Positions 31,258 through 64,000 of a DNA stretch of 64,000 nt are shown here, piece after piece. The translations under genes and the position numbers were made by a program. Under the pieces are notes generated by a model. The model saw nothing but the letters and a program-made list of their open reading frames with translations, was not told the DNA's origin and searched no databases. Source of the stretch: Eledone cirrhosa. Its lineage: Eukaryota. The stretch is taken from the NCBI GenBank assembly GCA_964016885.1, contig OZ024744.1:103168001-103232000 (forward strand), in the 5' to 3' direction. Position 1 is the first letter of the stretch, and every line of letters starts with the position of its first letter.

Positions 31258-31455
31258 GGTCACTCTTCAGTGTTACTTGTAACATGTAACCCAGTACAAC
31301 CTGTCGCATTGTCGGGTTGTCGGTGACTAAACCGGCAACCCCACCAAGTTTACTTGGTGAGGAGGGTGATTTTGGACACCCAGCAAGGACAAAAACAAAA
31401 CCTTGACAAAGGGCGGAATAACTCATAAAAGTCAACAGCCATCCTAAAATGTGTA
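31258..31455 (+). repeat. Unclassified SINE-like/interspersed element; complete in long units (also ~48881-49075), truncated in short units (e.g. 1625-1745)
   Basis: GC-richer block between microsatellites ending in GTCAACAGCCATCC plus a simple repeat. Family not recognised. Confidence 0.4.
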
Positions 31456-31527
31456 AATATGTATATGCATATATGCATGTGTATATATGTGTGTATGTAT
31501 ATGTATACATGTATATATATATATATG

Positions 31528-34500
31528 CTCACTACCTCCCAAATATCTGACAGTGACTATATAATTATTGCAGGCGACCTAAATGGTCATGTTGGGCAAC
31601 ATTGTGACGGCTACGACGAAATCCATGGAGGCTATGGGTTTGGTACTAGAAATGAGGAAGGCTCCAGAATCCTGGAATTCTGTGATGCAAATAACCTAAC
31701 TATCTGTAACACTAACTTCAAAAAACGTGACAATCACCTGATCACCTATAGATCTGGGGAACACACAAGCCAGGTAGATTATATCCTTACCAGAAGACGT
31801 GACAGAGTGTCTGTTGTAAACACTAAATCCCTCCCCCATGAAGAATGCACCTCCCAACATAGACTGATAATTAGCGACCTCATAGTCAGGACGAGACGTA
31901 CTCGACAGCAGAAGAGGACTATCCTCAGGAGAAAAATATGGAAGCTAAAGGACCCCACAGCCAAAAATAAATTTCAAAACATATTACTTGATGCTTTCGA
32001 CAGTAAGGAAGAACATTTAGAGTCGGACAATATTGAGGGACAGTGGGAATTTCTGAAAGCAAACCTGCTGTTGGCCACAGACGAAGTCTGTGGCTGGAGC
32101 AGGCCTGTAGGCAGGAGGAGAGTAACATGGTGGTGGAACAGTAAGGTGGAGGGGTCAATTAAGGCCAAAAAGCAGGCTTGGAAAGTATGGCGGGATGGGG
32201 GAAGTAGAGTAGACTATCAAGTGGCCAGGAGGGAAGCTAGGAGAGAAGTGTACTTAGCAAGAAGGGAAGCTGAGGAAAGAAAGTTCAAGCATGTCCTACA
32301 ACGCGATGACCAAAAACGTGAGGTGTTCAGGATTGCTAGGCAATGCGTCAAGGAAAACCGTGATATTGTCGGGGAGAAGTGTGTACTTAACGATGATGGC
32401 ATACTTGCCATCACCGACACTGATAAGAAGGTAGCTTGGAAGTGTCACTATGAAAGGCTACTAAATGAGGAGAATAAATGGGAGAAAGACAGTCTCCCCC
32501 ATGTCGACCCAATAGAGGGACCAGCAGTGTTAGTCGAGGGGAGTATAATAAGTAAGGCAATCAAGGATATGAAGACAGGTAAGGCGGCTGGGCCTTCGGA
32601 AATAGTTGCTGAGATGCTGAAGGCATCTGGCACGGTGGGACACACCATGGTCACCCGCATAGTTAACCAAGTCGTACAGAATGGGGTTGTTCCGAAGGAC
32701 TGGCATAGCAGCATCATCGTTAACTGTTATAAGGGTAAAGGAGACGCCCTAGATAGGAGTAACTATAGAGGCATTAAATTAATCGACCAGGTCATGAAGG
32801 TCACAGAAAAAGTAATAGCGCAACTAATCAGAGAGAGAATTGACCTAGATGAAATGCAGTTCGGGTTTGTGTCAGGCAAAAGTACCACAGACGCTCTTTT
32901 CATAGTACGACAACTACAGGAGAAGTACCTAGCTAAAGGTAAACCCCTCTACTTAGCTTTTGTCGACTTGGAGAAAGCCTTCGACAGAGTCCCCCGCTCC
33001 ATTATCTGGTGGGCTCTTAGAAAACTAGGCGTTGACGAATGGCTTGTGAGGGCTATACAAGCCATGTATAAAGAAACAGTCAGCAAGGTTAGAATTAACA
33101 ACGAATATAGTGAAGAGTTTAGCGTAAAAGTTGGCGTCCATCAGGGCTCTGTTCTCAGCCCCCTACTATTTATTATTGCCCTTCAGGCTATAACAGAGGA
33201 GTTCAAGACAGGCTGCCCATGGGAACTCCTATACGCAGACGACCTGACACTCATAGCGGAATCAATGGCCGAGCTAGAGAAGAAATTCCAAACATGGAAG
33301 CACGGCCTAGAGTCAAAAGGACTTAAAATTAACCTGGCTAAGACCAAAGTTCTAGTTTGTAGGAAAGAAAACAAGGCGGCGGTCCCTTCTGGGAAATGGT
33401 CGTGCTCGGTGTGTAGGAAAGGCGTAGGTAGAAACTCCATTTTGTGTCCTAAATGCAAAGTATGGGTGCATAAAAGATGTAGTGGGATCACAGGTAAGCT
33501 AACTAAGAACATAGATTTTACATGTGGCCGGTGTTCTGGTGCAATAAGTAGCAGCAAGTGCCCACAAAATACTAGCTCTTTCAATTGCGCAGAGGGTTCT
33601 ATAGAAATAGTGGACAGCTTCCGTTACCTGGGCGATAAAATCAGCAGTGGGGGAGGGTGCTCTGAAAGTACTGTAGCTAGAGTCAGAACTGGTTGGAAAA
33701 AGTTCAGAGAGCTTATACCACTATTAGCTGCTAAAGGGTTCTCCCTAAAAATGAAAGGCAGGTTGTACGATGCCTGCATACGAACAGCAATGTTGCATGG
33801 CAGTGAGACCTGGGCATTGTGTGCAGAGGATATACGCAGACTAGAGAGGAACGAAGCTTGCATGCTCCGCTGGATGTGTAACAGTAATATACGTGAACGG
33901 CAAAGCATAAACGAACTAAGGAAAAAATTAGAGATAAGAGGGATCAGATGTTGTTTACTCGAGAGAAGGCTACGTTGGTATGGACACGTGATGCGCATGA
34001 AAGTCGATAGCTGTATAACAAAGTGCAGGGCAATAAAGATAGACGGTAGCCACGGAATAGGCAGACCTAGAAAAACCTGGGACGAGCTGATAAACTCCGA
34101 CCTCACACACTTACACCTCTCCAAGACAATGTCACTGGACCGAGACCTTTGGCGGTACTCAGTAACAGAGAAGACCCGCCTTGCCAGTAGGCATCTCTAA
34201 CAAAATACACCCCGTCCCACCACCACCACCCCCACCCCATCCACACCACCCCGTCCTATGTAAAGTTATGTTGGTGCCGCGCCATCCGGGCCGAAACAAA
34301 TGAGATCGTGTAGGTGTCACGACAAAAAAACACACAGTCCACGCTGTAATGTGGCCGTGTAGGCAACACGGTAAAAACCTCCCAGACCCACACTGTAAAT
34401 GTGGTTGGTGTTAGGAAGGGCATCCAACTGTAGAAAACCTGCCAGACAGTCCTATGCGATCAAGACAATCACTCTTGCCTCAATTGGGACTACCCCCGTC

Positions 34501-34560
34501 CAAACCCATGCAAGCGTGGAACACGGACGTTAAACGTTGATGATGATGATGATGATGATG
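31528..34560 (+). mobile_element. Young RTE-clade LINE, 5'-truncated in the APE domain; RT ORF intact to 34200; (GAT)n tail
   Basis: AGDLNGHVG, QVDYIL, SQHRL (APE); FVDLEKAFDRV, GVHQGSVLSPLLF, LLYADD (RT); Cys-rich PHD-like insert. Empty site at ~49143. The N-terminal ~23 aa of the track ORF are microsatellite read-through. Confidence 0.96.
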
Positions 34561-34575
34561 CATATGTATATATAT

Positions 34576-34927
34576 GCGTGGGAACATAGAAATAATTGGG
34601 CTGGATACCCGATCACACAGTTAAACCACGGGGAGTAATGGACCCCTAGTCTTTGTCAGGGCATTCTTCTAGAAGAAGGCAACTCAGGAAACTGGTATAA
34701 CACCCATATAAAACCTGTGGCTCAGCAGTTACTGATGATATTGATCTTTTTTTCTTTTTGAGTTATAGCTACTGTCGCTCAGAGACTGGGATTGGCTCAG
34801 TGCACAGTCTTTCCTCACTTTAAAAAATATCTTCACGCACAGGCATTGCACAATAGAATTAATTAATAATGGTATATCGTACAATGGCCATACTCGATAT
34901 CGAGGGGGCAGCCATCATGTATGTATG
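34576..34927 (+). mobile_element. Bipartite non-autonomous RTE derivative (5'UTR + 3' end, no ORF)
   Basis: Matches 56506-56800 fused to the 3' motif of ~59751-59815. (TATG)n tail. Confidence 0.85.
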
Positions 34928-36326
34928 TTCTTCGGGTTTTATAATTTTATAAATGTATGTATGTATGTACTTTCTCTTAATTTTAAATTTATTTTTGACT
35001 GGCCAACATCCTGGTGACAAGGTTGTAAAGAAAAAGAAATTGTCATTACTTGTGTAAGCCTTCATCCTTTCAATCATGAGAATGTTTTACAAATTTTGAA
35101 GGTTTCAGATATCATGGCCATTTGTAGATCATGAATTTAGGAGCTATGTTCTTTCTCTATAAATCCCAGTTCAGTTATACTTTGGTCCAGGTGGAATTGT
35201 ATATAAACTGTAGCTCCAATTATTATATGGTTGAATTTGACCATGTATCTTGGATACAGACTAGTGTAAATGTCAACTGATTACCCTCTTTTTAGTACAG
35301 CAAGTACTTGGTAAAGATTTCTTTTTCCTGGATTACATGGAGATATCCTTTAAGGTGAGATGTTATGAACCTGTTGGAACTCCATGTCAGGCTTTTGGTA
35401 TTGTTTATGCCCTCTATGGTCTGTGCTTTTCATCTCAAGTATCCATGTACAACTTTCTCAGTAAAGTGGTCTATTATTTAATTTGTTTTGAGTATTGAGT
35501 AGAGTTTTCTGGTTGAGATGGTTGCTGACCATTTTCTTCTGTTGAAGATGTTGCTTTGTGTTACTATCCGAGTCTCTTAAGATGTTGATATGGATTTTAG
35601 GTCCACAAAACTCTCCATGTGTGAGAAATATTGCCCATCCACATCACCATTGATGTGAAAATTTCCATTAACACTGAGCAACTTGTAAGTCCCTACATCC
35701 ATCTCCTCTAGTTCTTTGTACGATGGATATTGTTCTATACACGTGTCATACGTAGTGGGATTTGACTAGGTACTGAATAGGAGAACAGGCATGAATGTAT
35801 TTACTGCAATGAAAGAAGCTACTAAGCTGTGATAGTGGAGGAAGGCATGAATGAAGTTGAGAGATATAGTGAAGGCATTGATATCTACTAAGTGGACAGA
35901 TTGATATATGTACATCTTTCTACCTGTCAGTCTATCTATCTCATCATCATCATGGCTTGACATTGCAAATGAAGATTATGAAGCAGGTGGTCCACGTTGA
36001 CTCTGAGATCACTCATGGTTGTACAGACAAATGTGGGACAGGCAGGCACAGCTACAGCGGGTACATCTATATATATCTTCTCAGGGTTTGATAAATTGGT
36101 ATTGAGGTTTCCCCTTGTGTCTTTTGTCGTTAAGGGTGGCCCTGTGGGTTTTTTAAAGGTGGAGAAAGCATGGTTGATGGGTGGGATTCCATTTGTCATG
36201 GTTCTTAGCTAGGGTGGACCACTGACGACGGTCCATATGATTCTATATATATATGTGATGGTGTAATAATAAAAGATAGGTTCTTAAATGTGACTTAATA
36301 AAAGAAGGTTCTTGAATGTAACTTAC

Positions 36327-36383
36327 TGTTTTCAATTCTTGGTGATTTGGTTGCCACTTGATCTCTGCCTGTAAACCATCCAC
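36327..36383 (-). CDS. 57-nt micro-exon, repeat copy 13 (KSP variant)
   Basis: Splice sites intact; CCA>TCA. Confidence 0.72.
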
Positions 36384-39229
36384 CTAAATAAAGAAAATAA
36401 TATCAATTCTACTTATATAAACCTATGATATTAACAGATAATGATGTGTGATGTCAGTGAAAGTTGGCTGCTATTTCTAGCATATTTAGTTACCTCATAG
36501 GTCTAGCATTGAGGTCTTCATATAGATTTTAGTATGAAACACATAAGGAAGATGTTTGTGTTGTAGATCACTCTCCTTCAAATTACACATTACCAACTTA
36601 TGTATGTATGTATGTATGTATGTATGTATGTATGTATGTATGTATGTATGTATGTATGTATGTATGTATGTATGTATGTAGTTATGTATGTTCTTTAGGT
36701 TTTATAATTTCACACATTTTTACCAATAGAGAGAGAGAGTCGGTTTCTAACATAGACACAAGACTCTCATTGTAATTTAACAACATCAACAAAGTAGATT
36801 ATGTATGCATGCATGCATGTGTAGATATGGATGTTATTGTATGTGTGGATGTGGATGTTTTGAGTTGTATGTCTGCATATGTATATGCTTTGTATCTGTA
36901 CATGTGTATATGCAGTTATTAGATGCAAACATTTTTGGAAGTTTTACATATTTTTACTGTTCCATTAATGGATTGTACTTGTAATTTCCTAACTAGTTGT
37001 GTTCTTTCTGTTCCTGTGAAGCCCAGCTTCTCAAGATTTGTATTGAGGCAGCTACTAACATACTCCAGTGCCCCAATAATCACAGGCATAAATCTGAGTA
37101 GATATGTATCTATGTATGTATGTATGTGGGACTGGCTTTGTGCAGTGCCTTTTCCTCACTATAAAAGCTTCACGGCACAGCCATTGCTTTATATCTGGAG
37201 ATCTCTCTGTACTTGTCGTCACATGGTACCATGGGCCCAGCACTATGTGTCAATAATTGTCACAAGTGTAGTGTTTGTACCAGAGCTTTCAAGTCGCTGG
37301 CTGGCTTAAAAAGTCACACTCGTTCAGCGCATCAGTAGGGGTTCTCCTAGATGGATATAAAGTAGTGGCCGTACTCGAAAAACGAGTTGCAGCCACGATG
37401 TATGTACGTATGTCGGGTCACTCTTCAGTGTTACTTGTAACATGTAACCCAGTACAACCTGTCGTATCGTCGGGTTGTCGGTGACTAAACCGGCAACCCC
37501 ACCAAGTTTACTTGGTGAGAAGGGTGATTTTGGATCCAGGTGACAAGGTTGTAAAGAAAAAGAAATTGTCATTTCTTGTGTAAGCCTTCATCCTTTCAAT
37601 CATGAGAATGTTTTACAAAGACTCTCATTGTAATTTAACAACATCAACAAAGTAGATTATGTATGCATGCATGTGTAGATATGGATGTTATTGTATGTGT
37701 GGATGTGTATGTTTTGAGTTGTATGTGTGCATATGTATATGCTTTGTATCTGTACATGTGTATATACAGTTATTAGATGCAAATTTTTTGGAAGTTTTAC
37801 ATATTTTTACTGTTCCATTAATGGATTGTACTTGTAATTTCCTAACTAGTTGTGTTCTTTCTGTTCCTGTGAAGCCCAGTTTCTCAAGATTTGTATTGAG
37901 GCAGTTACTAACATACCCCAGTGACCCAATAATCACAGGCATAAATCTGAGTAGTTATGTATGTATGTGAAAATTTCCATTAACACTGAGCAACTTGTAA
38001 GTCCATACATCAATCTCCTCTAGTTCTTTGTACTATGGATATTTTCCTATACACATGTCATACGTAGTGGGATTTGACTAGGTACTGAATAGGAGAACGG
38101 GCATTGATTTCAAGGAGAATTGGCTGCTATTTCTAGCATATTTAGTTACCAGATAAGTCTAGCATTGAGGTCTTCATATAGATTTTAGTATGAAACACAT
38201 AAGGAAGATGTTTGTGTTGTAGATCACTCTCCTTCAAATTACACATTACCAACTTATGTATGTATGTATGTATGTATGTATGTATGTATGTATGTATGTA
38301 TGTATGTATGTATGTATGTATGTAGTTATGTATGTTCTTTAGGTTTTATATTTTTCACACATTTTTACTAATAGAGAGAGAGAGTCGGTTTCTAACATAG
38401 ACACAACACTCTCATTGTAATTTATACAACATCAACAAAGTAGATTATGTATGCATGGATGCATGTGTAGATATGGATGTTATTGTATGTGTCGGTGTGG
38501 ATGTTTTGAGTTGTATGTCTGCATATGTATATGCTTTGTATCTGTACATGTGTATATGCAGTTATTAGATGCAAACATTTTTGGAAGTTTTACATATTTT
38601 TACTGTTCCATTAATGGATTGTACTATGGGTATTGTCCTATACACATGTCATACGTAGTGGGATTTGACTAGGTACTGAATAGGAGTACAGGCATGAATG
38701 TATTTACTGCAATGAAAGAAGCTACTAAGCTGTGATAGTGGAGGAAGGCATGAATGAAGTTGAGAGATATAGTGAAGGCATTGATATCTACTAAGTGGAC
38801 AGATTGATATATGTACATCTTTCTACCTGTCAGTCTATCTATCTCATCATCATCATGGCTTGACATTGCAAATGAAGATTATGAAGCAGGTGGTCCACGT
38901 TGACTCTGAGATCACTCATGGTTGTACAGACAAATGTGGGACAGGCAGGCACAGCTATAGCGGCTACATCTATATATCTTCTCAGGGTTTGATAAATTGG
39001 TATTGAGGTTTCCCCTTGTGTCTTTTGTCCTTAAGGGTGGCCCTGTGGGTTTTTTAAAGGTGGAGAAAGCATGGTTGATGGGTGGGATTCCATTTGTCAT
39101 GGTTCTTAGCTAGGGTGGACCACTGACGATGGTCCATGTGATTCTATATATATATGTGTGATGGTGTAATAATAAAAGATAGGTTCTTCAATGTAACTTA
39201 ATAAAAGAAGGTTCTTGAATGTAACTTAC

Positions 39230-39286
39230 TGTTTTCAATTCTTGGTGGTTTGGTTGCCACTTGATCTCTGCCTGTAAACCATCCAC
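39230..39286 (-). CDS. 57-nt micro-exon, repeat copy 14
   Basis: Consensus sequence, splice sites intact. Confidence 0.72.
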
Positions 39287-39509
39287 CTAAATAAAGAAAA
39301 TAATATCAAATCTACATATATAAACCTATGATGTTAACAGATAATGATGTGTGATGTCAGTGAAAGTTGGCTGCTATTTCTAGCATATTTAGTTACCTCA
39401 TAGGTCTAGCATTGAGGTCTTCATATAGATTTTAGTATGAAACACATAAGGAAGATGTCTGTGTTGTAGATCACTCTCCTTCAAATTACACATTACCAAC
39501 TTATGTATG

Positions 39510-39543
<34 letters not shown>

Positions 39544-41708
39544 TGTATGTAGTTATGTATGTTCTTTTGGTTTTATAATTTCACACATTTTTACCAATAG
39601 AGAGAGAGTCGGTTTCTAACATAGACACAAGACTCTCATTGTAATTTAACAACAACAACAAAGTAGATTATGTATGCATGCATGCATGTGTAGATATGGA
39701 TGTTATTGTATGTGTGGATGTGGATGTTTTGAGTTGTATGTCTGCATATGTATATGCTTTGTATCTGTACATGTGTATATGCAGTTATTAGACGCGAAAT
39801 TTTTGGAAGTTTTACATATTTTTACTGTTCCATTAATGGATTGTACTTGTAATTTCCTAACTAGTTGTGTTCTTTCTGTTGCTGTGAAGCCCAGCTTCTC
39901 AAGATTTGTATTGAAGCAGTTACTAACATACCCTGTGCCCCAATAATAACAGGCATAAATCTGAGTAGTTATGTATGTATGTATGTGGGACTGGCTTTGT
40001 GCAGTGCCTTTTCCTCACTATAAAAGCTTCACGGCACAGGCATTGCTTTATATCTGGAGATCTCTCTGCACTTGTCGTCACATGGTACCATGGGCCCAGC
40101 ACCATGTGTCAATAATTGTCACAAGTGTAGTATTTGTACCAGAGCTTTCAAGTCGCTGGCTAGACTAAAAAGTCACACTCGTTCAGCGCATCGGTAGGGG
40201 TTCTCCTACATGGATATAAAGTAGTGGCCTTACTCGAAAAACGAGTTGGCAGCCACCATGTATGTATGTATGTCGGGTCACTCTTCAGTGTTACTTGTAA
40301 CATGTAACCCAGTACAACCTGTCGCATTGTCGGGTTGTCGGTGACTAAACCGGCAACCCCACCAAGTTTACTTGGTGAGGAGGGTGATTTTTGATCCGGG
40401 TGACAAGGTTGTAAAGAGAAAGAAATTGTCATTTCTTGTGTAAGCCTTCATCCTTTCAATCATGAGAACGTTTTACAAATTTTGAAGGTTTCAGATATCA
40501 TGGCAATTTGTAGATCATGAATTTAGGAGCCATGTTCTTTCTCTATAAATCCCAGTTGAGTTATACTTTGGTCCAGGTGGAATTGTATATAAACTGTAGC
40601 TCCAATTATTATATGGTTGAATTCGACCATGTATCTTGGATACAGACTAGTGTAAATGTCAACTGATTACCCTCTTCTTTGTTCAGTAAGTACTTGGTAG
40701 AGATTTCTTTTTCCTGGATTACATGGAGATATCCTTTAAGGTGAGATGTTATGAACCTGTTGGAACTCCATGTCAGGCTTTTGGTATTGTTTATGCCCTC
40801 TATGGTCTGTGCTTTTCATCTCAAGTATCCATGTACAATTTCTAAGTAAAGTGGTCTATTATTTAATTTGTTTTGAGTATTGAGTAGAGTTTTCTGGTTG
40901 ATATGGTTGCTGACCATTTACTTCTGTTGAAGATGTTGCTTCGTGTTACTATCCGGGTCTCTTAAGATGTTAATATGGATTTTAGGTCCACAAAACCCTC
41001 CATGTGTGAGAAATATTGCCTATCCACATCACCATTGATGTGAAAATTTCCATTAACAGTGAGCAACTTGTAAGTCCATACATCCATCTCCTCTAGTTCT
41101 TTGTACTATGGATATTGTCCTATACACATGTCATACGTAGTGGGATTTGACTAGGTACTGAATAGGAGAACAGGCATGAATGTATTTACTGCAATGAAAG
41201 AAGCTACTAAGCTGTGATAGTGGAGGAAGGCATGAATGAAGTTGAGAGATATAGTGAAGGCATTGATATCTACTAAGTGGACAGATTGATATATGTACAT
41301 CTTTCTACCTGTCAGTCTATCTATCTCATCATCATCATGGCTTGACATTGCAAATGAAGATTATGAAGCAGGTGGTCCACGTTGACTCTGAGATCACTCA
41401 TGGTTGTACAGACAAATGTGGGACAGGCAGGCACAGCTACAGTGGCTAGATCTATATATATCTTCTCAGGGTTTGATAAATTGGTATTGAGGTTTCCCCT
41501 TGTGTCTTTTGTCATTAAGAGTGGCCCTGTGGGTTTTTTAAAGGTGGAGAAAGCATGGTTGATGGGTAGGATTCCATTTGTCATGGTTCTTAGCTAGGGT
41601 GGACCACTGACGATGGTCCATGTGATTCTATATATATGTGATGGTGTAATAATAAAAGATAGGTTCTTCAATGTAACTTAATAAAGAAGGTTCTTGAATG
41701 TAACTTAC

Positions 41709-41765
41709 TGTTTTCAATTCTTGGTGGTTTGGTTGCCACTTGATCTCTGCCTGTAAACCATCCAC
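41709..41765 (-). CDS. 57-nt micro-exon, repeat copy 15
   Basis: Consensus sequence, splice sites intact. Confidence 0.72.
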
Positions 41766-44312
41766 CTAAATAAAGAAAATAATATCAATTCTACTTATAT
41801 AAACCTGTGATATTAACAGATAATGATGTGTGATGTCAGTGAAAGTTGGCTGCTATTTCTAGCATATTTAGTTACTAGGTATGTCTAGCATTGATTTCAA
41901 AGAGAATTGACTGCTATTTCTAGCATATTTAGTTACCTCATAGGTCTAGCATTGAGGTCTTCATATAGATTTTAGTATGAAACACATAAGGAAGATGTTT
42001 GTGTTGTAGATCACTCTCCTTCAAATTACACATTACCAACTTATGTATGTATGTATGTATGTATGTATGTATGTATGTATGTATGTATGTATGTATGTAT
42101 GTATGTATGTATGTATGTATGTATGTATGTATGTATGTAGTTATGTAGTTATGTATGTTCATTTGGTTTTATAATTTCACACATTTTTACCAATAGAGAG
42201 AGAGAGTCGGTTTCTAACATAAACACACGACTCTCATTGTAATTTAACAACATCAACAAAGTAGATTATGTATGCATGCATGCATGTGTAGATATGGATG
42301 TTATTGTATGTGTGGATGTGGATGTTTTGAGTTGTATGTCTGCATATGTATATGCTTTGTATCTGTACATGTGTATATGCAGTTATTAGACGCAAAATGT
42401 TTGGAAGTTTTACATATTTTTACTGTTCCATTAATGGATTGTACTTGTAATTTCCTAACTAGTTGTGTTCTTTCTGTTCCTGTGAAGCCCAGCTTCTCAA
42501 GATTTGTATTGAGGCAGTTACTAACATACTCCTGTGCCCCAATAATAACAGGCATAAATCTGAGTAGTTATGTATGTATGTATGTATGTGGGACTGGCTT
42601 TGTGCAATGCCTTTTCCTCACTATAAAAGCTTCACGGCACAGGCATTGCTTTATATCTGGAGATCTCTCTGCACTTGTCATCACATGGTACCACGGGCCC
42701 AGCACTATGAGTCAATAATTGTCACAAGTGTAGTATTTGTACCAGAGCTTTCAAGTCGCTGGCTGGACTAAAAAGTCACACTCGTTCAGCGCATCAGTAG
42801 GGGTTCTCCTACATGGATATAAAGTAGTGGCCGTACTCGAAAAACGAGTTGGCAGCTACCATGTATGTATGTCGGGTCACTCTTCAGTGTTACTTGTAAC
42901 ATGTAACCCAGTACAACCTGTCGCATTATCGGATTGTCGGTGACTAAACCAGCAACCCCTCCCAGTTTACTTGGTGAGGAGGGTGATTTTGGATCCGGGT
43001 GACAAGGTTGTAAAGAAAAAGAAATTGTCATTACTTGTGTAAGCCTTCATCCTTTCAATCATGAGAATGTTTTATAAATTTTGAAGGTTTCAGATATCAT
43101 GGCTATTTGTAGATCATGAATTTAGGAGCTGTGTTCTTTCTCCATAAATCCCAGTTCAATTATACTTTGGTCCAGGTGGAATTGTATATAAACTGTAGTT
43201 CCAATTATTATATGGTTGAATTTGACCATGTATCTTGGATACAGACTAGTGTAAATGTCAACTGATTACCCTCTTCTTTGTACAGTAAGTACTTGGTAGA
43301 GATTTCTTTTTCCTGGATTACATGGAGATATCCTTTAAGGTGAGAGGTTATGAACCTGTTGGAACTCCATGTCAGGCTTTTGGTATTGTTTCTGCCCTCT
43401 ATGGTCTGTGCTTTTCATCTCAAGTATCCATGTACAATTTCTAAGTAAAGTGGTCTATTATTTAATTTGTTTTGAGTATTGAGTAGAGTTTTCTGGTTGA
43501 GATGGTTGCTGACCATTTACTTTTGTTGAAGATGTTGCTTCGTGTTACTATCCGAGTCTCTTAAGATGTTAATATGGATTTTAGATCCACAAAACTCTCC
43601 ATGAGTGAGAAATATTGCCTATCCACATCACCATTCATGTGAAAATTTCCATTAACACTGAGCAACTTGTAAGTCCATACATCAATCTCCTCTAGTTCTT
43701 TGTACTATGGATATTGTCATATACACATGTCATACGTAGTGGGATTTGACTAGGTACTGAATAGGAGTACAGGCATGAATGTATTTACTGCAATGAAAGA
43801 AGCTACTAAGCTGTGATAGTGGAGGAAGGCATGAATGAAGTTGAGAGATATAGTGAAGGTATTGATATCTACTAAGTGGACAGATTGATATATGTACATC
43901 TTTCTACCTGTCAGTCTATCTATCTCATCATCATCATGGCTTGACATTGCAAATGAAGATTATGAAGCAGGTGGTCCACGCTGACTCTGAGATCACTCAT
44001 GGTTGTACAGACAAATGTGGGACAGGCAGGCACAGCTACAGCGGGTACATCTATATATATCTTCTCAGCGTTTGATAAATTGGTATTGAGGTTTTCCCTT
44101 GTGTCTTTTGTCCTTAAGGGTGGCCCAGTGGGTTTTTTAAAGGTGGAGAAAGCATGGTTGATGGGTAGGATTCCATTTGTCATGGTTCTTAGCTAGGGTG
44201 GACAACTGACGATGGTCCATGTGATTCTATATATATATGTGTGATGGTGTAATAATAAAAGATAGGTTCTTCAATGTAACTTAATAAAAGAAGGTTCTTG
44301 AATGTAACTTAC

Positions 44313-44369
44313 TGTTTTCAATTCTTGGTGGTTTGGTTGCCACTTGATCTCTGCCTGTAAACCATCCAC
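44313..44369 (-). CDS. 57-nt micro-exon, repeat copy 16
   Basis: Consensus sequence, splice sites intact. Confidence 0.72.
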
Positions 44370-48069: not shown

Positions 48070-48126
48070 TGTTTTCAATTCTTGGTGGTTTGGTTGCCAC
48101 TTGATCTCTGCTTTTAAACCATCCAC
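48070..48126 (-). CDS. 57-nt micro-exon, repeat copy 17 (first in transcript order): (C)GWFKSRDQVATKPPRIEN
   Basis: Splice sites intact; two substitutions change TG to KS. Confidence 0.72.
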
Positions 48127-52826: not shown

Positions 52827-52880
52827 ATTTTTCGCTTATTGGTGGAAGTAACACATAAGATGATAGTTTAAGAGGTACAT
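52827..52880 (-). CDS. 54-nt phase-1 symmetric micro-exon: (D)VPLKLSSYVLLPPISEK
   Basis: TTATTTTATTTGATATTTACTTTCAG|ATGTACC...GAAAAAT|GTAAGT. The other two frames contain TAA. Confidence 0.72.
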
Positions 52881-53129
52881 CTGAAAGTAAATATCAAATA
52901 AAATAAGAGCAATTCAACATTGATATGTTTGTTTGTGTGTGTGAATGTATGTATGTACTCTATGACCAGATACCCTTCCTATCATCTACCACTTTACAGA
53001 AGAATGTAGTAGGTGTGTAAATCACCAAAACTAGGTGGGTTATCATGTTTATGACACAGGAGTAGTGACAATAGTTTATTTGGTAAGTTTTCTATGTCTA
53101 CATGTAATTACTATCATCAACCACATTAC

Positions 53130-53445
53130 AGGGTCATCATTGCCAGGGACAGCAGCTCATTCAGACACTTGCAGAAGTGCATGTGATGGAACCACTCTCT
53201 AAACTCCACCATAAAGATCAGAGTCTACAAAGCTGTTGTAATCACTACCCTCCTCAATAGAGCAGAAAGATAGGTCCTCTACCAGAAACAGATCAACGAC
53301 AAACTGACAAAGTATACATTTGCCTCATCTGTAGTAGATTTGTAAGTCCAGGTTTGGTCACTACCGCCACCTCAGGGTGTGACACCACACAAAATAGGAC
53401 AACAACTCTTCCCACTGATCTTCACAAGTGAAGAATTCTCCATTC
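53130..53445 (+). mobile_element. Degenerate RTE/BovB-type fragment
   Basis: NHSLNSTIKIRVYKAVVITTLL-like translation, a terminal Cys finger remnant and a TGATCTTC..GAAGAA 3' motif. Confidence 0.6.
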
Positions 53446-53846
53446 TACTCTGGTATGTCCCTTTCTATAGCAAACCACCTTTCAGGATGTACTTGTTGCA
53501 TTTATTGTTGCAGTACCACTAAAGTGACAGTCAGATATTGACTCAACTAAAGGATCCTCTCAAGTTAATGAGATGTGTTAGTGTGGTTGTGATGGTGGAG
53601 AGGTAAAGAGGATGATAAGTTTGATGTCATGGGAGTAGTGTGATTTGATAGGAAGGAGAAGATGTGACCTCCATTACTACGGGGAGATTTACTGCAATGA
53701 TAGCAACTATTACGATGTGATTGTGGAGGGGGTCATAAAGAAGTTTGAGGTTTTACCACTAAGGTAAGGATATCTATGAAAGATCTACAGAGGATGGAAG
53801 CATATATGTATATATCTACATACATATATATATATCAACATATATA

Positions 53847-55451
53847 CAGTGCCCCGCAAAAGTTTACAACACATTAGGAAAAGTGTGGGTTTAGGTATTT
53901 TTAATAAAGTTAGAGTAATGAAAATTTAACTACTGATAGAACATATAATGAGGCCTTTAATGATACAATCATATTTTTAAAAAAATAACAAGGAAATAAC
54001 TCATTAAGAAAAATCAATATTTTTATAACCCAAAAGTTTACAACACATTTATTAAATCATCTCTTAATATTTCGTAGCGTAACCTTTGTTGCTAATTATA
54101 GCCTGTAGGCGTTTGGAGTAGCCTCTTGCATGTTTCTTGGCTAATATTTTTCCATTCTTCACAACAAATTTTCTTTAGTTCAGGGATATTTGGGGGTTTC
54201 CTTTTTTGAATTCTGAGTTTCAGTTCTCTCCACAAATTTTCGATTGGGTTAAGATCTGGAGACTGACTTGGCCATTTTAGAACATTTATTCCATTCGTAC
54301 TTAACCAAGATTGTGTTAGCTTTGCAGTATGCTTTGGATCGTTATCTTGTTGAAAAAACCAACCTGGCTTTAAGCTGAGAGAATGTGCACTTTGATGTAA
54401 ATTCCTTTGCAAAATACCTCTATAATAAGCGCCACCCATTCTTCCTTCTATTATTTCAATATTTCCTACACCTGTAGCACTATAGCAACCCCAGACCATG
54501 ATTGATCAACCTCCAAATTTTACAGTTGGAATAGTATTCTTCAGCGAATATTCAGTACCTTTCTTTCTCCAGACTTTTGCCACAGCATTTCGACCAAAAT
54601 GTTCAATTTTTGTTTCGTCCGACTAAAGTACATCTTCCCAAAATCACGCAGATTTGATGAGATGCTCATTTGCAAAGTTTAATCGACGAAGAACGTGTTT
54701 CCTCGTAAGAAGTGGTGTTTTCCTTGGAGACCTCGAGAAGATATTATATCGACGAAGTGAACGACTAATTGTATCTGTGCTCACTTTTACTCCACTTTCT
54801 TCTAGGTCATCCTGAAGATTTTAAAGAGTACACCGGGGTTCGTTGCCAACCTTTCTCGTCAATAACCGAGCTGCACGTTCCGTTATCTTTCTAACACAAC
54901 CAGAACTAATGAGAGGACAGATGGAATGATGAGATTTCCAGTGACGAATTATAGTACCAACTGAACTCAATGGCACATTTAACTGACAAGATATCTTTCT
55001 ATAACCAACACCATTTGTATGAAGGTCTACAATGCGTTTACGGTGGTCTTGATCAATCAGTTTATTTTTCCCCATATTGTCCATGTTTACAGGACGGTTG
55101 TCAATGTTTACAGGATGGTTGTCAGACAAATAATGACGTAATGTTTTTAATAGTCCTTAGAAGTTACCTTAAACCTAATCTAGAACATTCTACTGAATTT
55201 TAAATCTGAAAATTTAAGAATTTTCTTGAAAAAAAGCGATAAATATAAAATGTGTTGTAAACTTTTGCGTTATAAAAATATTGATTTTTCTTCATGAGTT
55301 ATTTCCTTGTTATTTTTAAAAAAATATGATTGTATCATTAAATGCCTCATTATATGTTCTATCAGTAGTTAAATTTTCATTACTCTAACTTTATTAAAAA
55401 TACCTAAAACCGCATTTTTCCTAATGTGTTGTAAACTTTTGCGGGGCACTG
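53847..55451 (-). mobile_element. Tc1-family (DD34E) transposon with long IR/DR-type TIRs, inactivated transposase
   Basis: TA|CAGTGCCCCGCAAAAGTTTACAACACA ... TGTGTTGTAAACTTTTGCGGGGCACTG|TA. ~200-bp TIRs, each with AAAAGTTTACAACACA twice. MVWGC, FQQDNDPKH, WPSQSPDLNPIENLW. Confidence 0.95.
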
Positions 55452-55461
55452 TATATGTATA

Positions 55462-55900
55462 TATTATAAATGTAAGTTATCGCCGTATTTTGACTAAAGA
55501 AGTTAAAGAAATTATTTAGCCTGATAGTGGGGTTAAGAACCCTCAAAGAAATGGAAAAAGATGAGTATTGACGTACATGGGAGTCGAACCCACATCTTTG
55601 GTTATCTGGACCACTGTGCTACCATTTACACCAACATATCATGTGATGTGTTGGTGAAAATGGTAGTACAGTGGTCCGGATAACCAATTGGTGTAAATGG
55701 TAGCACAGTGGTCTGGATAACCAAAGATGTGGGTTCGACTCCTATGTACGTCAATACTCATCTTTTTCCATTTCTCCGAGGGTTCTTAACCCCACTATCA
55801 GGCTAAATAATTTCTTTAATTTCTTTAGTCAAAATACGGCGATAGCTTACATTTATAATAATTTCCAACCCGCCCGCTGTTTCGAAAATATTCTTACATA
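55462..55900. mobile_element. Fold-back element with 173-bp arms, each containing a tRNA-like (Pol III A/B box) head, arranged head-to-head
   Basis: 55462-55634 is the near-perfect reverse complement of 55688-55860. TGGTGTAAATGG and GGTTCGACTCC present. Flanked by TA runs. Confidence 0.75.
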
Positions 55901-56076
55901 TATATATATATATTAATTCTGAATGAGCAAGACATATTCATCTGTCTCACAACAGGAAAACTTGTCTAACCCATGCTAGCATGGAAATGTTGACTTAACT
56001 GTGATGATGATGATAATGATATATTAGTAAAGTGTGTTGGTGTGTTATATTAGAAAAGTTCTTTAATACAACTTAC

Positions 56077-56118
56077 CCCATAATGTTACTGGTCTATCAG
56101 AGACATATTTAGTCCCAC
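56077..56118 (-). CDS. 42-nt phase-1 symmetric micro-exon: (G)GTKYVSDRPVTLW
   Basis: CCTTTTTATTCCAG|GTGGGACT...TTATGGG|GTAAGT. The other two frames contain TAA. Intron flanks resemble those of the 57-nt exon. Confidence 0.72.
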
Positions 56119-56505
56119 CTGGAATAAAAAGGACCCAAAGAAAATAATATCAGATCTACATGTATTTATATATTATGTTAGCAGGCATATATGGTGGTTT
56201 CTGGGTATTGTAATCAAGTATCTTAAGTAAATATGGTGTGACGTTATAGAGAATTGGCTGCTATTTCTAGCATATATACTTTCCAGGTATGTCTACCATT
56301 GACATCATATAGATGTATGGTCCTTAAAAGGGAGATTTTGTGTTTGTAAATCACCAAGAGAGAAATAGTAATCAACATCCCTTCAAAACCGACACCACTC
56401 TCCGGTATAGATGTGTATGTATGCATGTATATTATGTATATTACAATACCCAGAAACCACCATATATGCCTGCTAACATAATTTTTTTTTTTTTGTTTTG
56501 TTTTT

Positions 56506-59500
56506 GCGCGCGGGGACATAGAAATAATCGGGCTGGATGCCCGATCGCGCAGTGAAGAACCCCTGGGAGTGAAGAACCCCTAGCCCTTGTCAGGGCATTC
56601 TTCTAGGAGAAGGCATCTCAGGAAACTGGGTTAACTCCGACATAAAACCTGCGGCTCGGTAGTTACCGATGATGTTGATCTTTTCTTCTTTTCGGGTTAT
56701 AGCTACTGTCGCTCAGAGAGTGGGATTGGCTCAGTGCACAGTCTTTCCTCACTTTAAAAATATTCGTCACGCACAGGCATTGCACGAGTGCATTAATAAT
56801 TATTAATAGTGTACTATTATTATTATTATTATTATTGTTACTATTATTATAACTTTTTTTTTTTTCCCAATTCAATGATGTTCCAGAACAATATAAAAGA
56901 GATAATTGGCAATTTAGGTTCTGGAACAAAAAAGATAATTGGCAATAAGGGCAGGGGCCCCAGGTTATCACAGCCTGGGCCCGCTCGTCATCGTGCCATT
57001 GTAATAGAGCCAAACAAGGCATTTAGTCTTGGCTGCTGGAACGTACGGACGCTGCTTGACAGGGATTCCTTGGAGCGTCCTGAACGAAGGACCGCTCTTG
57101 TTGCAAAGGAGCTTCGACGTTACGATCTTGACATCGTGGCTTTATCTGAGACGAGGTTAGCTGGAGATGGTCATCTTACAGAATTTTGTGGAGAATATAC
57201 ATTCTTCTGGAAAGGAAGAGATGAAGGAACCAGAAGAGAGTCTGGGGTAGGTTTTGCTGTTAAGACTGTACTTGTGAATAAATTAGAAGAATTCCCAGTA
57301 GGGATTAGTGAGCGTCTTATGTCCATGAGAATTCCACTGGACAAAGGAAGATATGCGACCCTGGTGAGTGTGTATGCTCCAACTATGAATTCTGTCGATG
57401 AAGAAAAAGTGTCCTTTTACCATGCCTTGAAAGGTGTTTTAAGAAATATCCCTCAGGCAGACAAAGTCATCGTGCTTGGTGACTTTAATGCTAGAGTGGG
57501 TAGAGATTTTAACATATGGAATGTAATCGGAAGGCATGGGGTGGAAAAGTGTAACAACAATGGTATGCTCCTGCTGCAGATGTGTGAGGAGCTGGATCTG
57601 TGTGTTACCAACACCATGTTCCAACAAAAGAACAAATTCAAGACCACATGGATGCATCCTGCATCTAAGGAATGGCATCTTTTGGACTACGTCTTAGTCA
57701 GGATGCGTGACAGACAGGATGTGCAGTGTGTTCGTGCTCTTCGTGGAGCTGAGTGCTGGACGGACCACCTCCTGGTACGCGCAAAAGTGAAACTAATAAC
57801 TAAACGTAAAATCCGGGCTCCTGGTGTTGCCCTGCCCAAAAGATTGAATGCTGCTCGTCTTAAGGATAAAAATGTGAAGAGGACATTGCTTTCTGTTGTA
57901 GGGAAAGTTTTATGTAGGGTGTTTCTGGACCGTCTGCTGACACACATTGCAGATTGTGTTCTTCCTGAAAGTCAATCTGGTTTTCGTGCTGGACGGGGCA
58001 CTACTGATATGATCTTCTCAGCTAGACAGCTCCAGAAGAAGTGCATGGAACAAGGCTTGGATCTGTATCAGGTTTTTGTCGATCTGACAAAAGCTTTCAA
58101 TACTGTAAACAGAGATGCATTATGGAAGATTCTCCAGAAACTTGGTTGCCCTGATAAGTTCCTTGCTTTAGTTAGGTCTTTCCATGACGACATGAAGGCT
58201 TGGGTTATTGTCGGAGCCTATCTCAGTAAAAAATGGAGTGAAACAGGGGGATATTCCAGCACCGACCCTGTTTGCCATATACTTTGCAATGGTTTTCTGT
58301 ATTGCATTCAGGAATTGCGAGCATGGTGTTTCCATCCGATATCGAACCTCAGACAGCATATTTAACATCAGGCGCTTTGCTGCAAAGGCAAAAGTATTTA
58401 CATCAATCATAAGAGACCTCTTGTATGCAGATGATTGCGATCTTGTAGCGCACACAGAGAGTGATATGCAGCACATTTTGAATGCATTTTCTGACGCTTG
58501 CACTGCCCTAGGATTGACTGTCAGTCTCAAGAAAACCGTCGTCATGTACCAACCTGCCCCTGGTAAGCAGTACACTGAACCAAACATCTATGTGTATGGC
58601 AAACGACTTGGAGTGGTTGATCAGTTTGTCTACCTGGGAAGCACTGTCAATTGATCCAGCAACCTTGACAGTGAAATCTCACTTAGGATTACGAAAACAA
58701 GTGATGCTTTCGAAAAGCTAGAAAGGCGACTCTGGAGTCGGCGAGACATATGCAAGAAGACAAAGGTAAAGGTGTACAGGGCATGTGTGCTCTCTTCTCT
58801 TCTTTATGCCTGCGAGACCTGGGTTACATATCGACACCACCTTAAGCAATTGGAGTGTTTCCATCAGATGTGTCTCAGACGGATCCATGGCGTTCACTGG
58901 AGGGACCACATAAGTGATGTCGAGATTTTGGAAAGCTCTATGTGTGACAGTATAGAAGCTCTTGTGCTTAAGCAACAACTCCGTTGGAGTGGTCACCTTG
59001 CCAGGATGAAGGATTCTAGAATACCAAAACAACTCTTTTATGGAGAGTTAGTTAAAGGAAAACGACCGCCACATAAACTAAAAAAGAGGTATAAGGATTC
59101 CTTGAAAGCCTCTTTGAAAGACGCTAACATCTCTGCTGATACATGGGAAAATGTTGCTGCTGATCGTAATAAATGGAGAAAGACTGTATATGAGGGAAAA
59201 GTTGCTTTGAGGCATCTCGAATCTCATACGAGAAAGTAAAGCTGGATGTGAGGAAGGGTATTGCTGTTGCACTTCCAGACGGCGAGGGTCCTCCTATGGT
59301 GCTGACATGCAGCATCTGTGAGAGACTCTGCCTAAGCAAAGCTGGACTCGAAAGTCATCTTCGCAGTTGTAAAGTAAACCAGTGGTTAACTACCAGGCTG
59401 CTGTTGGAGATGCTACTCATCATGCTTGCCAAACATGTGGTAGAGAATGTAAATCAGCAGGAGGGCTCAAACGACATGCAAAAGTACATGAACTCCAAGC

Positions 59501-59815
59501 ACAGCCGGCTATTCCCAGTGAATGTTTTGGTTGCCGACTCTGTGCAAGACATTTTAGATCATTGGCTGGGCTAAAAAGCCACATTCGATCGCAGCGCTGT
59601 TAATTGCTATTGTGTGTGCATGTGTGTGAATAGATATGTTTGTGTGCGTGTGTGTATATATATATATATGTATATTATTATTGTTGTTGTTGTCGTTATT
59701 ATTATTGTTGTTATTATTATTATTATTGTTATTATTATGGGTTTTTTTCTTGTGCAATTGCCATACTCGATAACGAGGGGACAGCCATCATCATGTATGT
59801 ATGTATGTATGTATG
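56506..59815 (+). mobile_element. Near full-length RTE/BovB-type LINE, inactivated (internal deletion ~57880, frameshifts, stops), three C-terminal C2H2 fingers, (TATG)n tail
   Basis: CWNVRTL, ALSETR, GVGFA, LGDFNARVG, WTDHLL (APE); FVDLTKAF, GVKQG, LLYADD, FVYLGS (RT); CSIC..H, CQTC..HAKVH, CRLC..H. Confidence 0.95.
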
Positions 59816-60160
59816 TACACCCAATTGCGCGGTTAAACCACTGGGAGTGAAGGACCCCTAGCCTTTCTCAGGGCATTCTTCTAGGAGAAAGCAACTCAGG
59901 AAACTGGGATAACTCCGATATGAAACCTGCGGCTCAGTAGTTACCGATGATGTTGATCTTTTCTTTTTTTCGGGTTATAGCTACTGTCGCTCAGAGAGTG
60001 GGATTGGCTCAGTGCACAGTGTTTCCTCACTTTAAAAAATATCTTCACGCACAGGCATTGCACGATAGAATTAATTAATTATTATTAATAATGGTATATC
60101 GTGCAATGGCCATACTCGATAACGAGGGGGCAGCCATAATCATGTATGTATGTATGTATG
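59816..60160 (+). mobile_element. Bipartite non-autonomous RTE derivative sitting in the tail of the full-length RTE
   Basis: Same 5'UTR/3'-end fusion as 34576-34927, slightly 5'-truncated. Confidence 0.85.
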
Positions 60161-60950
60161 TTATCTCTTTCTCTTAATTCTGAGTACATTTTTTACTGGC
60201 CACCTTCCTGGTGGCAAGGTTGTAAAAGAAAAAAAATTGGCATCCCTTGAATTGCAAGAATATTTTCAAATTTTGAAGGTCCCAGCTATTGCAGCCATTT
60301 GTAGTCTATGAATTAGGGAGCTGCACTCTTTGTCCACAAATCCAAGTTCAGTTATACATTGGTCCTGAGCTGGTATATAACCTTTAGCTCCAATAATGAT
60401 GGGTATGAAGCTGAAGTTGTATCTTGGATCCTGGATCTGCAAACTCCTCATCAATGGTCCGTAGATGTCCTCCTTCTCTTGTATTTTTCTTACAACGTTG
60501 ACATCAAGTGGGCAGCTGATCTCTACAACAGAGCACATCTTCAATATGTGGTCCCAAACAACAAAATCAGGCCAGTTGTGCTTTAATTTGGTGGCAGTTC
60601 TTATTTTCAGGTTACACTAGTATTCCATAGTGCCATCTATCTCAACATATTCCTCCTCATTTGTTTTAAATTTTGGTTTCCTAAGTGCATTCCAGATGGT
60701 TCTAGCTATGACATTGTGTCTTATAGGGAGGTAGTAACGAGATGACATTCTTTCACAGTCGGCAATAATGAGGCTAACATCTTCATTCTTTGTTTTACAT
60801 AGCCTACATTTATTGTTGACTGATGGCCCTCCTCTTTTGTGTAGCAGATATTTGATAGGGATTTCTTGTTCCTGTATTGCATAGAGATATCCTTCAAGGT
60901 GGGATGTCATAAACTTGTCGGGACTCCAAGCCAGGCTTTTTGAATGATCT
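60161..60950 (-). mobile_element. 5'-truncated R4/Dong family-A copy, flanked by (TATG)n
   Basis: DKFMTSHLEGYLYAIQEQE..CRLC..RHNVIA..VEISCPLD, with stops. Confidence 0.9.
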
Positions 60951-61029
60951 ATGTATGTATGTGAGTATGTATATATGTATGTGTCTCCATTGAATGCATG
61001 TTTGTATGTATGTATATATGTAGTATGTA

Positions 61030-61352
61030 TGAATGTCTCCATTGGTGTCTCCATTGAATTGGTGTGTCTTGGGGTGTGGAAAGATTTGCTTGAGCGGGTC
61101 TGGTCTTGGGGGCCACAGTCGCAGCTATGTTCGTAGAGCACCAGTGAACTATGATCTCCTTGGTAGTGAGAAGTTTCACAGACAACCTGATGCAAGACCT
61201 GAGTCCAGGGAGATCCATAGTTGTTGTCAATGTGTGAAGGAGTGCAAGTGTCTAGCAGGCTTGAAAAGCCATTACCAAGTGTCAAACATCGGAATCTGAC
61301 AAGTGATTGCAATACTCTTGGCAGAGTTTGCAGCCATCATGTATGTATGTAT
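61030..61352 (+). mobile_element. RTE 3' fragment with terminal zinc finger and (TATG)n tail
   Basis: CCQCVKECKCLAGLKSH followed by GCAATACTC..GAGTTTGCAGCCATCATGTATG. Confidence 0.65.
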
Positions 61353-61556
61353 GTGCCTGGGTGTGTATGTATGTATATGTGTGTGTGCGAGTGTGTGTGT
61401 GTATGTATGTATGTAATATAATGTATGTACGTATATATGTAATATAATGTTTGTATCTAGACATGTATATATGTATGTATGTACATGTAAAATAATATAT
61501 ATATATATATAACTGTATTAATAATATATACACATCATGTTTAAACTATAACTGAC

Positions 61557-61616
61557 CTTCATGTAGGGTAATACAATCACATATAGTGCACTCGCGATAA
61601 TCTATGATGCAGAAGT
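61557..61616 (-). CDS. 60-nt phase-1 symmetric Cys-rich micro-exon: xFCIIDYRECTICDCITLHE
   Basis: TATTTCAG|ACTTCTGC...CATGAAG|GTCAGT. The other two frames are stopped (TAG, TGA). The donor flank resembles that of the 52827 exon. The pyrimidine tract is weak. Confidence 0.6.
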
Positions 61617-62342: not shown

Positions 62343-64000
62343 ACAGAAGAATGTAGTAGGTGTGTATATCACCAACACTAGGTAGGTTATCATGTTTATG
62401 ACATAGAAGAATGTAGTAGGTGTGTAAATCACCAACACTGGGTAGGTTATCATGTTTATGACATAGAAGAATATAGTAGGTGTGTAAATCACCAACACTG
62501 GGTAGGTTATCATGTTTATGACATAGAAGAATATAGTAGGTGTGTAAATCACCAACACTGGGTAGGTTATCATGTTTATGACATAGAAGAATATAGTAGG
62601 TGTGTAAATCACCAACACTGGGTAGGTTATCATGTTTATGACATAGAAGAATGTAGTAGGTGTGTATATCACCAACACTAGGTAGGTTATCATGTTTATT
62701 ATACGTAAGAATGTAGTAGGTGTGTATATCACCAACACTAGGTAGGTTATCATGTTTATGACACAGAAGAATGTAGTAGGTGTGTATATCACCAACACTA
62801 GGTAGGTTATCATGTTTATGACATAGAAGAATGTAGTAGGTGTGTATATAACCAACACTAGGTAGGTTATCATGTTTATTATACGGAAGAATGTAGTAGG
62901 TGTGTATATCACCAACACTAGGTAGGTTATCATGTTTATGACATAGAAGAATGTAGTAGGTGTGTATATCACCAACACTAGGTAGGTTATCATGTTTATG
63001 ACACAGAAGAATGTAGTAGTTGTGTATATCACCAACACTAGGTAGGTTATCATGTTTATGACATAGAAGAATGTAGTAGGTGTGTATATCACCAACACTA
63101 GGTAGGTTATCATGTTTATGACATAGAAGAATGTAGTAGGTGTGTATATCACCAACACTAGGTAGGTTATCATGTTTATGACATAGAAGAATGTAGTAGG
63201 TGTGTATATCACCAACACAAGGTAGGTTATCATGTTTATGACACAGAAGAATGTAGTAGGTGTGTATATCACCAACACTAGGTAGGTTATCATGTTTATG
63301 ACATAGAAGAATGTAGTAGGTGTGTATATCACCAACACTAGGTAGGTTATCATGTTTATGACATAGAAGAATGTAGTAGGTGTGTATATCACCAACACTA
63401 GGTAGGTTATCATGTTTATGACATAGAAGAATGTAGTAGGTGTGTATATCACCAACACTAGGTAGGTTATCATGTTTATGACACAGAAGAATGTAGTAGG
63501 TGTGTATATCACCAACACTAGGTAGGTTATCATGTTTATGACACAGAAGAATGTAGTAGGTGTGTATATCACCAACACTAGGTAGGTTATCATGTTTATG
63601 ACATAGAAGAATGTAGTAGGTGTGTATATCACCAACACTAGGTAGGTTATCATGTTTATTATACGGAAGAATGTAGTAGGTGTGTATATCACCAACACTA
63701 GGTAGGTTATCATGTTTATGACATAGAAGAATGTAGTAGGTGTGTTTATCACCAACACTAGGTAGGTTATCATGTTTGTGACACAGAAGAATGTAGTAGT
63801 TGTGTATATCACCAACACTAGGTAGGTTATCATGTTTATGACATAGAAGAATGTAGTAGGTGTGTATATCACCAACACTAGGTAGGTTATCATGTTTATG
63901 ACATAGAAGAATGTAGTAGATGTGTATATCACCAACACTAGGTAGGTTATCATGTTTATGACATAGAAGAATGTAGTAGGTGTGTATATCACCAACACAA
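62343..64000. repeat. 60-bp minisatellite, ~27.5 copies, runs off the right edge
   Basis: Unit ACATAGAAGAATGTAGTAGGTGTGTATATCACCAACACTAGGTAGGTTATCATGTTTATG, in register line after line. Confidence 0.98.

Follow-up and report, generated by a model that had tools for sequence, protein, structure and literature searches.

Analyses of a 64,000-nucleotide stretch of the Eledone cirrhosa genome (hereafter the window; contig OZ024744.1, here C28, positions C28:103168001-103232000 of a 3.0-Gb genome), read together with the surrounding 1.264 Mb, indicated that three short segments on its minus strand probably belong to a large gene built from micro-exons. We put at about 65% the probability that these segments are members of a set of 40 related micro-exons, each preserving the frame, which would splice behind a candidate start exon into one lineage-specific coding gene, referred to here as gene 1. 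The chain very probably originated as a real spliced coding gene, and the gene is probably still functional. Directly visible in the DNA are the segments with their splice signals and common flanks, the one reading frame that stays open, and exon interiors that have diverged more than their surroundings.

The minus-strand chain of micro-exons

The three segments comprise a Cys/Asp-rich exon of 60 nt (type A, 61557..61616), an exon of 42 nt (type B, 56077..56118, flanked by tattccag and gtaagttgta) and an exon of 54 nt (type C, 52827..52880, flanked by tttcag and gtaagttataattt), all on the minus strand and phase-1 symmetric. A preliminary description of the window had reported them as AG/GT-bounded minus-strand segments with lengths divisible by three, open in phase 1 only and with stops in the other two frames; re-reading of the sequence bore this out, and the peptides given for the three exons were reproduced. 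Each exon is preceded by a CAG that follows a T-rich tract, and the donors after exons A, B and C are GTCAGT, GTAAGT and GTAAGT. Four paralogous copies of type A are sited 181-223 kb upstream of 61557..61616, and four close paralogs of type B, 36-42 nt in length, lie upstream of 56077..56118. Paralogs of type C were found downstream (48 and 46 nt) and in gene 2 (60 nt), a head-to-head paralog of gene 1 on the plus strand whose ATG exon (peptide P0001) is at 103553482 and whose coding last exon is at 103761804.

Paralogs were located by using every exon, together with its flanks, as a query, which gave matches on the same contig. Family donors were gathered by flank similarity from hand-picked seeds, and an automatic acceptor picker applied to these donors produced the exon table. 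Gene 1 as assembled in this way has 40 family micro-exons of 18-66 nt (mostly 36-66 nt) on the minus strand, from C28:103487431 to 103136536 (356-kb span): 15 upstream of the window, the three reported segments, 17 copies of an exon termed D, and five downstream. The preliminary description had warned that exons in the window might have been overlooked; a donor profile scan of the 1.264 Mb gave no further family donor there, and at a threshold of at least 13 bits it gave only two additional sites, neither of them in gene 1. A stricter donor pattern run over the whole genome matched a single site, an uninformative outcome. The description had also confined all introns to 2.5-5.8 kb, which was wrong, as gene 1 introns range from 152 to 24,238 bases and the one upstream of 61616 measures 171,233 bases.

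Gene 1 is likely to start with a 121-nt ATG exon at C28:103492148, whose donor is GTAAGTTATGAT in phase 1; this exon sits 260 kb beyond the window and 4,596 bases upstream of the first micro-exon. Of nine ATG-to-donor candidates over 65 kb of upstream sequence, this one only has a family-like donor. It escaped the donor profile scan, so its assignment is likely but short of certain. No copy of the P0001-type first exon was found upstream of gene 1 by tblastn, nhmmer or genome search. With 15 family exons and this candidate on one side and five exons on the other, both ends of the gene fall outside the window, as had been proposed.

Joined in order, all 41 exons encode 685 aa up to a stop, in keeping with the earlier claim of a micro-exon gene in a single reading frame, for which genomic sequence is the support. 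The product would have 665 aa when the 46-nt exon is left out and 677 aa when both the 46- and 21-nt exons are. A run of 37 consecutive internal exons is free of stops and frameshifts, and exons of at most 69 nt hold 94% of the gene 1 exon bases. Most family donors are strong (GTAAGT), and one GC donor occurs within gene 1.

All of the 21 non-redundant internal exons of gene 1 (a count from which the terminal exons of 46, 21 and 48 nt were excluded) are multiples of three and open in phase 1, compared with 33 of 158 controls obtained by applying the picker to non-family GT[AC]AG[TA] sites. The same 21 exons are open in phase 0 in 10 cases and in phase 2 in two. The preliminary description had used the agreement of four exons as its argument against chance. 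The exons are paralogs and thus non-independent draws, and the variety of lengths is a better measure: the 17 distinct exon lengths of genes 1 and 2 (15-69 nt, one of them hand-chosen) are all multiples of three. In a family-blind scan for splice signals, candidates that were multiples of three and open in phase 1 made up 28 of 39 on the minus strand (D included) and 2 of 24 on the plus strand at 103.14-103.50 Mb; at 103.50-103.73 Mb the fractions were 13 of 33 (plus) and 2 of 36 (minus), the candidate strand switching with the gene. It is true that the signals were found by pattern in repeat-rich DNA and that the first-exon peptides have no homolog in the protein collections. Against these points stand the 21 of 21 exons, the uniformly divisible lengths, the switch of strand and the greater divergence at replacement than at silent sites (below), and we regard chance splice-like signals in repeats, with no gene, as extremely improbable.

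Three public runs, all from one sample, contain contigs in which the unchanged 42-nt and 54-nt exons run on into the introns; the 42-nt exon occurred in all three runs and the 54-nt exon in one listed contig. These runs behave like DNA data and add no independent support, and their sample may be identical to that of the assembly.

Divergence of exon interiors and the exon D array

A feature that the preliminary description overlooked is that the exons are duplicates with common flanks and accelerated interiors. Between paralogous exons the flanks have been kept and the interiors changed. The clearest pair shows 58% identity in the exon and 91% and 100% in the flanks, with 15.5 replacement versus 0.5 silent changes. 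Across six non-overlapping pairs of paralogous exons within this genome, hand-picked from 19 and leaving out a small-copy pair (pS 0.08, pN 0.12), the replacement sites that differ number 61 of 190 and the silent ones 8 of 53 (p=0.0098), which corresponds to a proportion of 0.32 for replacement sites (pN), 0.15 for silent sites (pS) and a corrected ratio of 2.5. Of 11 pairs of equal length, 9 had an exon mismatch at least double that of deep intron (e.g., 0.42 versus 0.056 over 719 bases), a comparison in which pairs share exons, 7 of 18 pairs of unequal length were unscored, and intron identity, taken from alignable parts only, tends high.

These data bear on the possibility that the exons form a constitutively spliced spacer whose sequence is unselected, the exon excess arising from constrained or recently homogenised flanks. 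Such a spacer would fit with the strength of most donors (GTAAGT), and exon symmetry is needed for any tolerated duplication and is uninformative on skipping. The high bias of alignable-only intron identity would also favour it, as would some downstream flanks that are identical at 63 of 63 bases, which suggests conversion. However, within the same exons the rate of difference at replacement sites is twice that at silent ones, the best pair has the 15.5 to 0.5 imbalance given above, and the exon excess persists against hundreds of intron bases. We therefore consider an unselected spacer unlikely.

Exon D (57 nt, open in phases 0 and 1) is present in the window in 17 minus-strand copies, from 48126 down to 577. 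The first copy (48070..48126) differs from the others by two amino-acid changes. The 16 further copies (521..44369) are arranged in tandem units of about 2.5 kb, none has a stop or indel, and they start at 44369, 41765, 39286, 36383, 30498, 25891, 23373, 20819, 18352, 15756, 13244, 10711, 8155, 5631, 3115 and 577. In one copy the acceptor AG has become TG, and an in-frame CAG 15 nt inside would leave a 42-nt exon (30442..30483). Only 7 of 969 exon bases differ among the copies, and the array is read as a recent amplification. A p-value for purifying selection on D was discarded, having been inflated by far-flank insertions.

Based on these patterns, we propose that exons and their flanking intron DNA were copied as cassettes, via local duplication and unequal crossing-over. 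As every cassette is phase 1-1 and a multiple of three, its gain, loss, skipping or shortening to the next in-frame AG would leave the frame unbroken; several exon lengths do result from loss of an AG and use of the next in-frame AG 15 or 30 nt on. Older cassettes would have been driven apart by selection for new amino acids, with cassette D as the newest, just amplified 17-fold. Skipping could combine the diversified modules, and we see even odds that isoforms are varied in this way. Internal YAG sites are in frame in 21 of 42 cases (36 exons, non-independent), a proportion that is suggestive. The product might then act as a variable binding surface on a tether, with a Cys-rich N-terminus that is possibly lipid-anchored.

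Several transposable elements were observed among the cassettes. One D unit contains an open reading frame of 923 aa from a long interspersed nuclear element (LINE) with endonuclease, reverse transcriptase and a PHD-like finger (31429-34200 (+)), which may be a young element. A broken LINE, a Tc1-like element, two mariner-like elements and one reverse-transcriptase fragment occupy introns at 56800-59239 (+), 53860-55450, 46720-47990, 29724-30287 and 26257-27003, and the mariner-like element is present in two D units (48126 and 30498).

The predicted product and known micro-exon genes

The product of gene 1 is predicted to be intracellular and up to 685 residues long, and it is probably largely unfolded, judging from composition and hydropathy. 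It has a predicted isoelectric point of 5.3, a grand average of hydropathy of -0.64 and 21 Cys; residues 61-300 are acidic and the D repeats mildly basic. The N-terminal Cys residues are at positions 4, 9, 10 and 21, and this Cys-rich region may be lipid-anchored by S-acylation. No protein homolog was found for the first-exon peptides P0001, P0002 and P0003, a weak negative given such short queries, and the equally short P0001, P0002 and gene 2 last exon had no Pfam match. These searches covered first and last exons, and a domain spread over several micro-exons could escape them.

A secreted protein or receptor stalk, as considered in the preliminary description, was not supported. A hydropathy scan, which assumes the first-exon assignment, detected no N-terminal hydrophobic stretch or signal peptide in gene 1 or gene 2; such a stretch is lacking in three related first exons and in each of the three first-exon types. 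The best 19-residue hydropathy was 1.72 at residue 648, near the C-terminus and below a membrane-helix call, and 1.07 in gene 2. A secreted or cell-surface variable protein like those of schistosome micro-exon genes (MEGs) would need a signal-peptide exon elsewhere. One account (PMC4350168) describes a matching architecture and evolutionary signature, five 60-nt exons of gene 1 bear Cys, and the first-exon assignment is unproven. The hydropathy values argue against secretion, as does the lack of a family donor in the other eight ATG-to-donor candidates of the upstream 65 kb, and we consider this possibility highly unlikely.

MEGs are described as genes composed mostly of very small symmetric exons with kilobase-size introns, clustered, transposon-rich and with high dN/dS; all products have signal peptides, there are 10-20 exons, mostly of 15 bp, and the genes are apparently restricted to flatworms (PMC4350168; 10.1101/2023.06.21.545858). 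Gene 1 is alike in having its coding sequence mostly in tiny symmetric exons (94% of bases in exons of at most 69 nt, 21 of 21 divisible by three), in its kilobase-size introns, clustered copies and transposon-rich setting, and in accelerated amino-acid change, seen here between paralogous exons. In contrast to MEGs, it has no visible signal peptide, 41 exons of 18-121 nt across 356 kb, and exons that are recognisable duplicates with common flanks; its splicing is inferred, and no sequence likeness to MEGs was found with the short first-exon peptides. Gene 1 works like a schistosome MEG, yet on the signal peptide it falls outside that group.

The closest intracellular case is SmVAL6 of Schistosoma mansoni. 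Its 38 exons include a long tail of small ones in the same phase, it has a GC donor and 3' splice sites in competition, and it yielded 35 isoforms in 67 clones, with 17 exons under 20 bp and an SCP/TAPS domain (PMC2270263). Group 2 VALs, SmVAL6 included, are described as intracellular (PMC4350168). Gene 1 shares the series of small same-phase exons, the GC donor and potentially competing acceptors. It differs in that SmVAL6 has smaller exons and a folded SCP/TAPS domain, whereas no Pfam match was found for P0001, P0002 or the last exon of gene 2, and no exon of the gene 1 chain exceeds 121 nt. The Drosophila spermatocyte genes kl-3 and kl-5 have megabase introns of simple satellites (PMC6508621), and their likeness to gene 1 is limited to a satellite-filled intron (171 kb here), as they are not micro-exon arrays. 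Conserved neural microexons are single, very short exons in old conserved genes (10.64898/2026.09.05.749416). The exons of gene 1, unlike these, are mostly 36-66 nt, compose the whole gene and diverge fast. Unfolded or repeated regions that grew by duplication of small symmetric exons also occur in titin PEVK, triadin, NBPF/Olduvai and the caseins, which are conserved vertebrate proteins of known homology.

Literature searches found no such micro-exon gene described in cephalopods; undiscussed models in the supplements of genome papers are conceivable, and in 10.64898/2026.09.05.749416 octopus figures only as a sampled species. MEGs have been presented as a device of flatworm parasites for secreted proteins (PMC4350168). 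A gene of this build and selection signature in a probably free-living cephalopod, with no signal peptide, would show that the micro-exon design arises independently, also for intracellular targets. Such genes would be invisible to standard annotation and protein databases, consistent with the first-exon peptides matching nothing in the collections searched. The locus presents all stages together: exon D freshly amplified 17-fold, older copies that have diverged, acceptors shifted in frame, a minimal copy of three exons and a copy in decay. The exact predicted junctions make the splicing simply testable.

Our best guess for the setting, a tentative one, is the male germ line. It is based on the rapid change, the lineage restriction, a TGACGTCA site and the satellite intron, all noticed after the fact. 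This type of site is linked to spermatid genes in mammals. It occurs 147 bases before the gene 1 ATG, with six such sites in 400 kb, and 447-636 bases before five of six near-identical first exons of a family at C28:28-46 Mb (below). In its boldest form, our proposal would be that a free-living mollusc arrived, independently of flatworms, at a generator of diversity like the MEGs but for a protein inside the cell: a family along the chromosome whose genes consist almost wholly of interchangeable phase-1 cassettes from two ancestral exons, positively selected and splice-mixed into many isoforms, serving a germ-line or immune recognition conflict and transcribed through a 171-kb and possibly a 337-kb satellite intron. 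We hold this full version to be rather doubtful.

The 3' end of gene 1, satellites and neighbouring copies

The intron upstream of the 60-nt exon is filled by a 60-bp satellite that begins in the window at 62345..63998, totals 203 kb and surrounds an island of 11 kb in which four more exons lie. One monomer with 92% identity to this satellite, part of a repeat common in the public runs, is found at 52998-53062 in the intron that directly precedes the 54-nt exon; the 203-kb array may have grown from an element like it. A second satellite, of 48 bp, extends over 337 kb (C28:102799359-103136035) with no island of other sequence.

Several observations weigh against a functional spliced gene of the kind proposed. 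The 48-bp satellite begins 500 bases past the last donor of gene 1, and those 500 bases contain no poly(A) signal. The coding last exon of the family has three copies in the genome, none of them behind gene 1 or within its span, so the gene would have to end at its own stops, borrow a last exon or be truncated. Among the late exons one has 46 nt and two contain phase-1 stops, and the 3' end may therefore be decaying. Splicing of the chain is predicted from genomic sequence, and at the protein level the candidate first exon shows no recognisable resemblance to the two remaining first-exon types. Two of the 11 equal-length pairs lacked an exon excess. Variable columns number 5 of 57 in the D exon and 7 of 85 in its upstream flank; as D exons are as variable as this flank, no purifying selection is visible. 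An amphipathic N-terminal helix did not exceed shuffled sequences (p 0.28, 0.69, 0.08), and the unique part of the product contains 10% Ile and 6% Cys. No TGACGTCA site lies within 2 kb of the gene 2 first exon.

Some of these points would also be explained if gene 1 were a recently dead or truncated copy, in which satellite expansion removed the last exon and the remainder is decaying, with gene 2 on the plus strand as the working gene. The missing last-exon homolog, the 46-nt and stop-bearing 3' exons, the lost D acceptor, the GC donor and the D copies without a selection signal are all compatible with such a loss, and a decayed, stop-bearing copy does exist 400 kb off. On the other hand, the 37 consecutive internal exons without stop or frameshift argue for an intact gene, as does the manner in which the chain ends. 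When every exon is included, each of the two genes shows a one-base shift and stops at a TAA at bases 2-4 of a shared penultimate exon, which gene 2 reaches via its own 22-nt exon. This shared TAA argues for a real end, and may be coincidence. In addition, the chain could be spliced to the intact last exon of a small same-strand copy 400 kb away, which would give 693 aa. We judge a dead copy to be improbable, and a gene that remains functional is the preferred reading.

Gene 2 resembles gene 1 in its exon structure. All of its 15 internal exons are multiples of three; 14 are open with the automatic acceptor, and the remaining one is open with a hand-chosen next acceptor. Further exons of 22 and 51 nt bring the product to 274 aa when both are included, compared with 294 aa without them. 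The small minus-strand copy has three exons (102775570, 102743346 and 102738952; 95 aa). The decayed plus-strand copy, which contains stops, lies at 102.733-102.792 Mb, 400 kb from gene 1. Reading its first exon, at C28:102.73 Mb, as a retrocopy was rejected, as the downstream sequence matches no exon elsewhere.

More distant relatives were indicated on the same contig. Intron 1 of gene 2 matches six sites at C28:28-46 Mb over a 70-base stretch with 80% identity, each site lying behind a phase-1 first exon of the P0003 type, one of which has a stop and one a frameshift. At the four sites that were read onward, micro-exons of mostly 54-66 nt and of the same two cassette types follow, with at least 26, 69, 22 and 4 cassette profile matches in sense and 1, 0, 1 and 0 in antisense. 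The copies at C28:28.8, 43.4, 45.25 and 46.47 Mb start with a basic first exon, followed by exons of 54-66 nt in dense arrays. Of 19 distinct donor tails compared outside the splice core, 17 reached the 99th percentile of 461 controls, which are mostly not true donors and hence favour this result. These genes share with gene 1 the phase-1 first exon, the two cassette types and the donor tails. They differ in that their exons are near-identical repeats at short spacing, and several copies have frameshifted exons of 58 or 59 nt. BLASTP gave no alignment among P0001, P0002 and P0003. We read the C28:28-46 Mb genes as distant relatives through shared cassettes.

Additional features were noted in and around the window. 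A recent inverted duplication, with copies at C28:102760078-102787337 and 103544367-103560111 that are 780 kb apart and both point outward, carries the P0001 first exon, the peptides being 98% identical. At C28:103847175-103849262 (-) there is an open frame of 696 codons built of a tandem repeat. Within the window, the sole Rfam results were two weak matches resembling tRNA; they lie in inverted orientation within a repeat of an intron (55569-55753) and are probably the heads of short interspersed nuclear elements.

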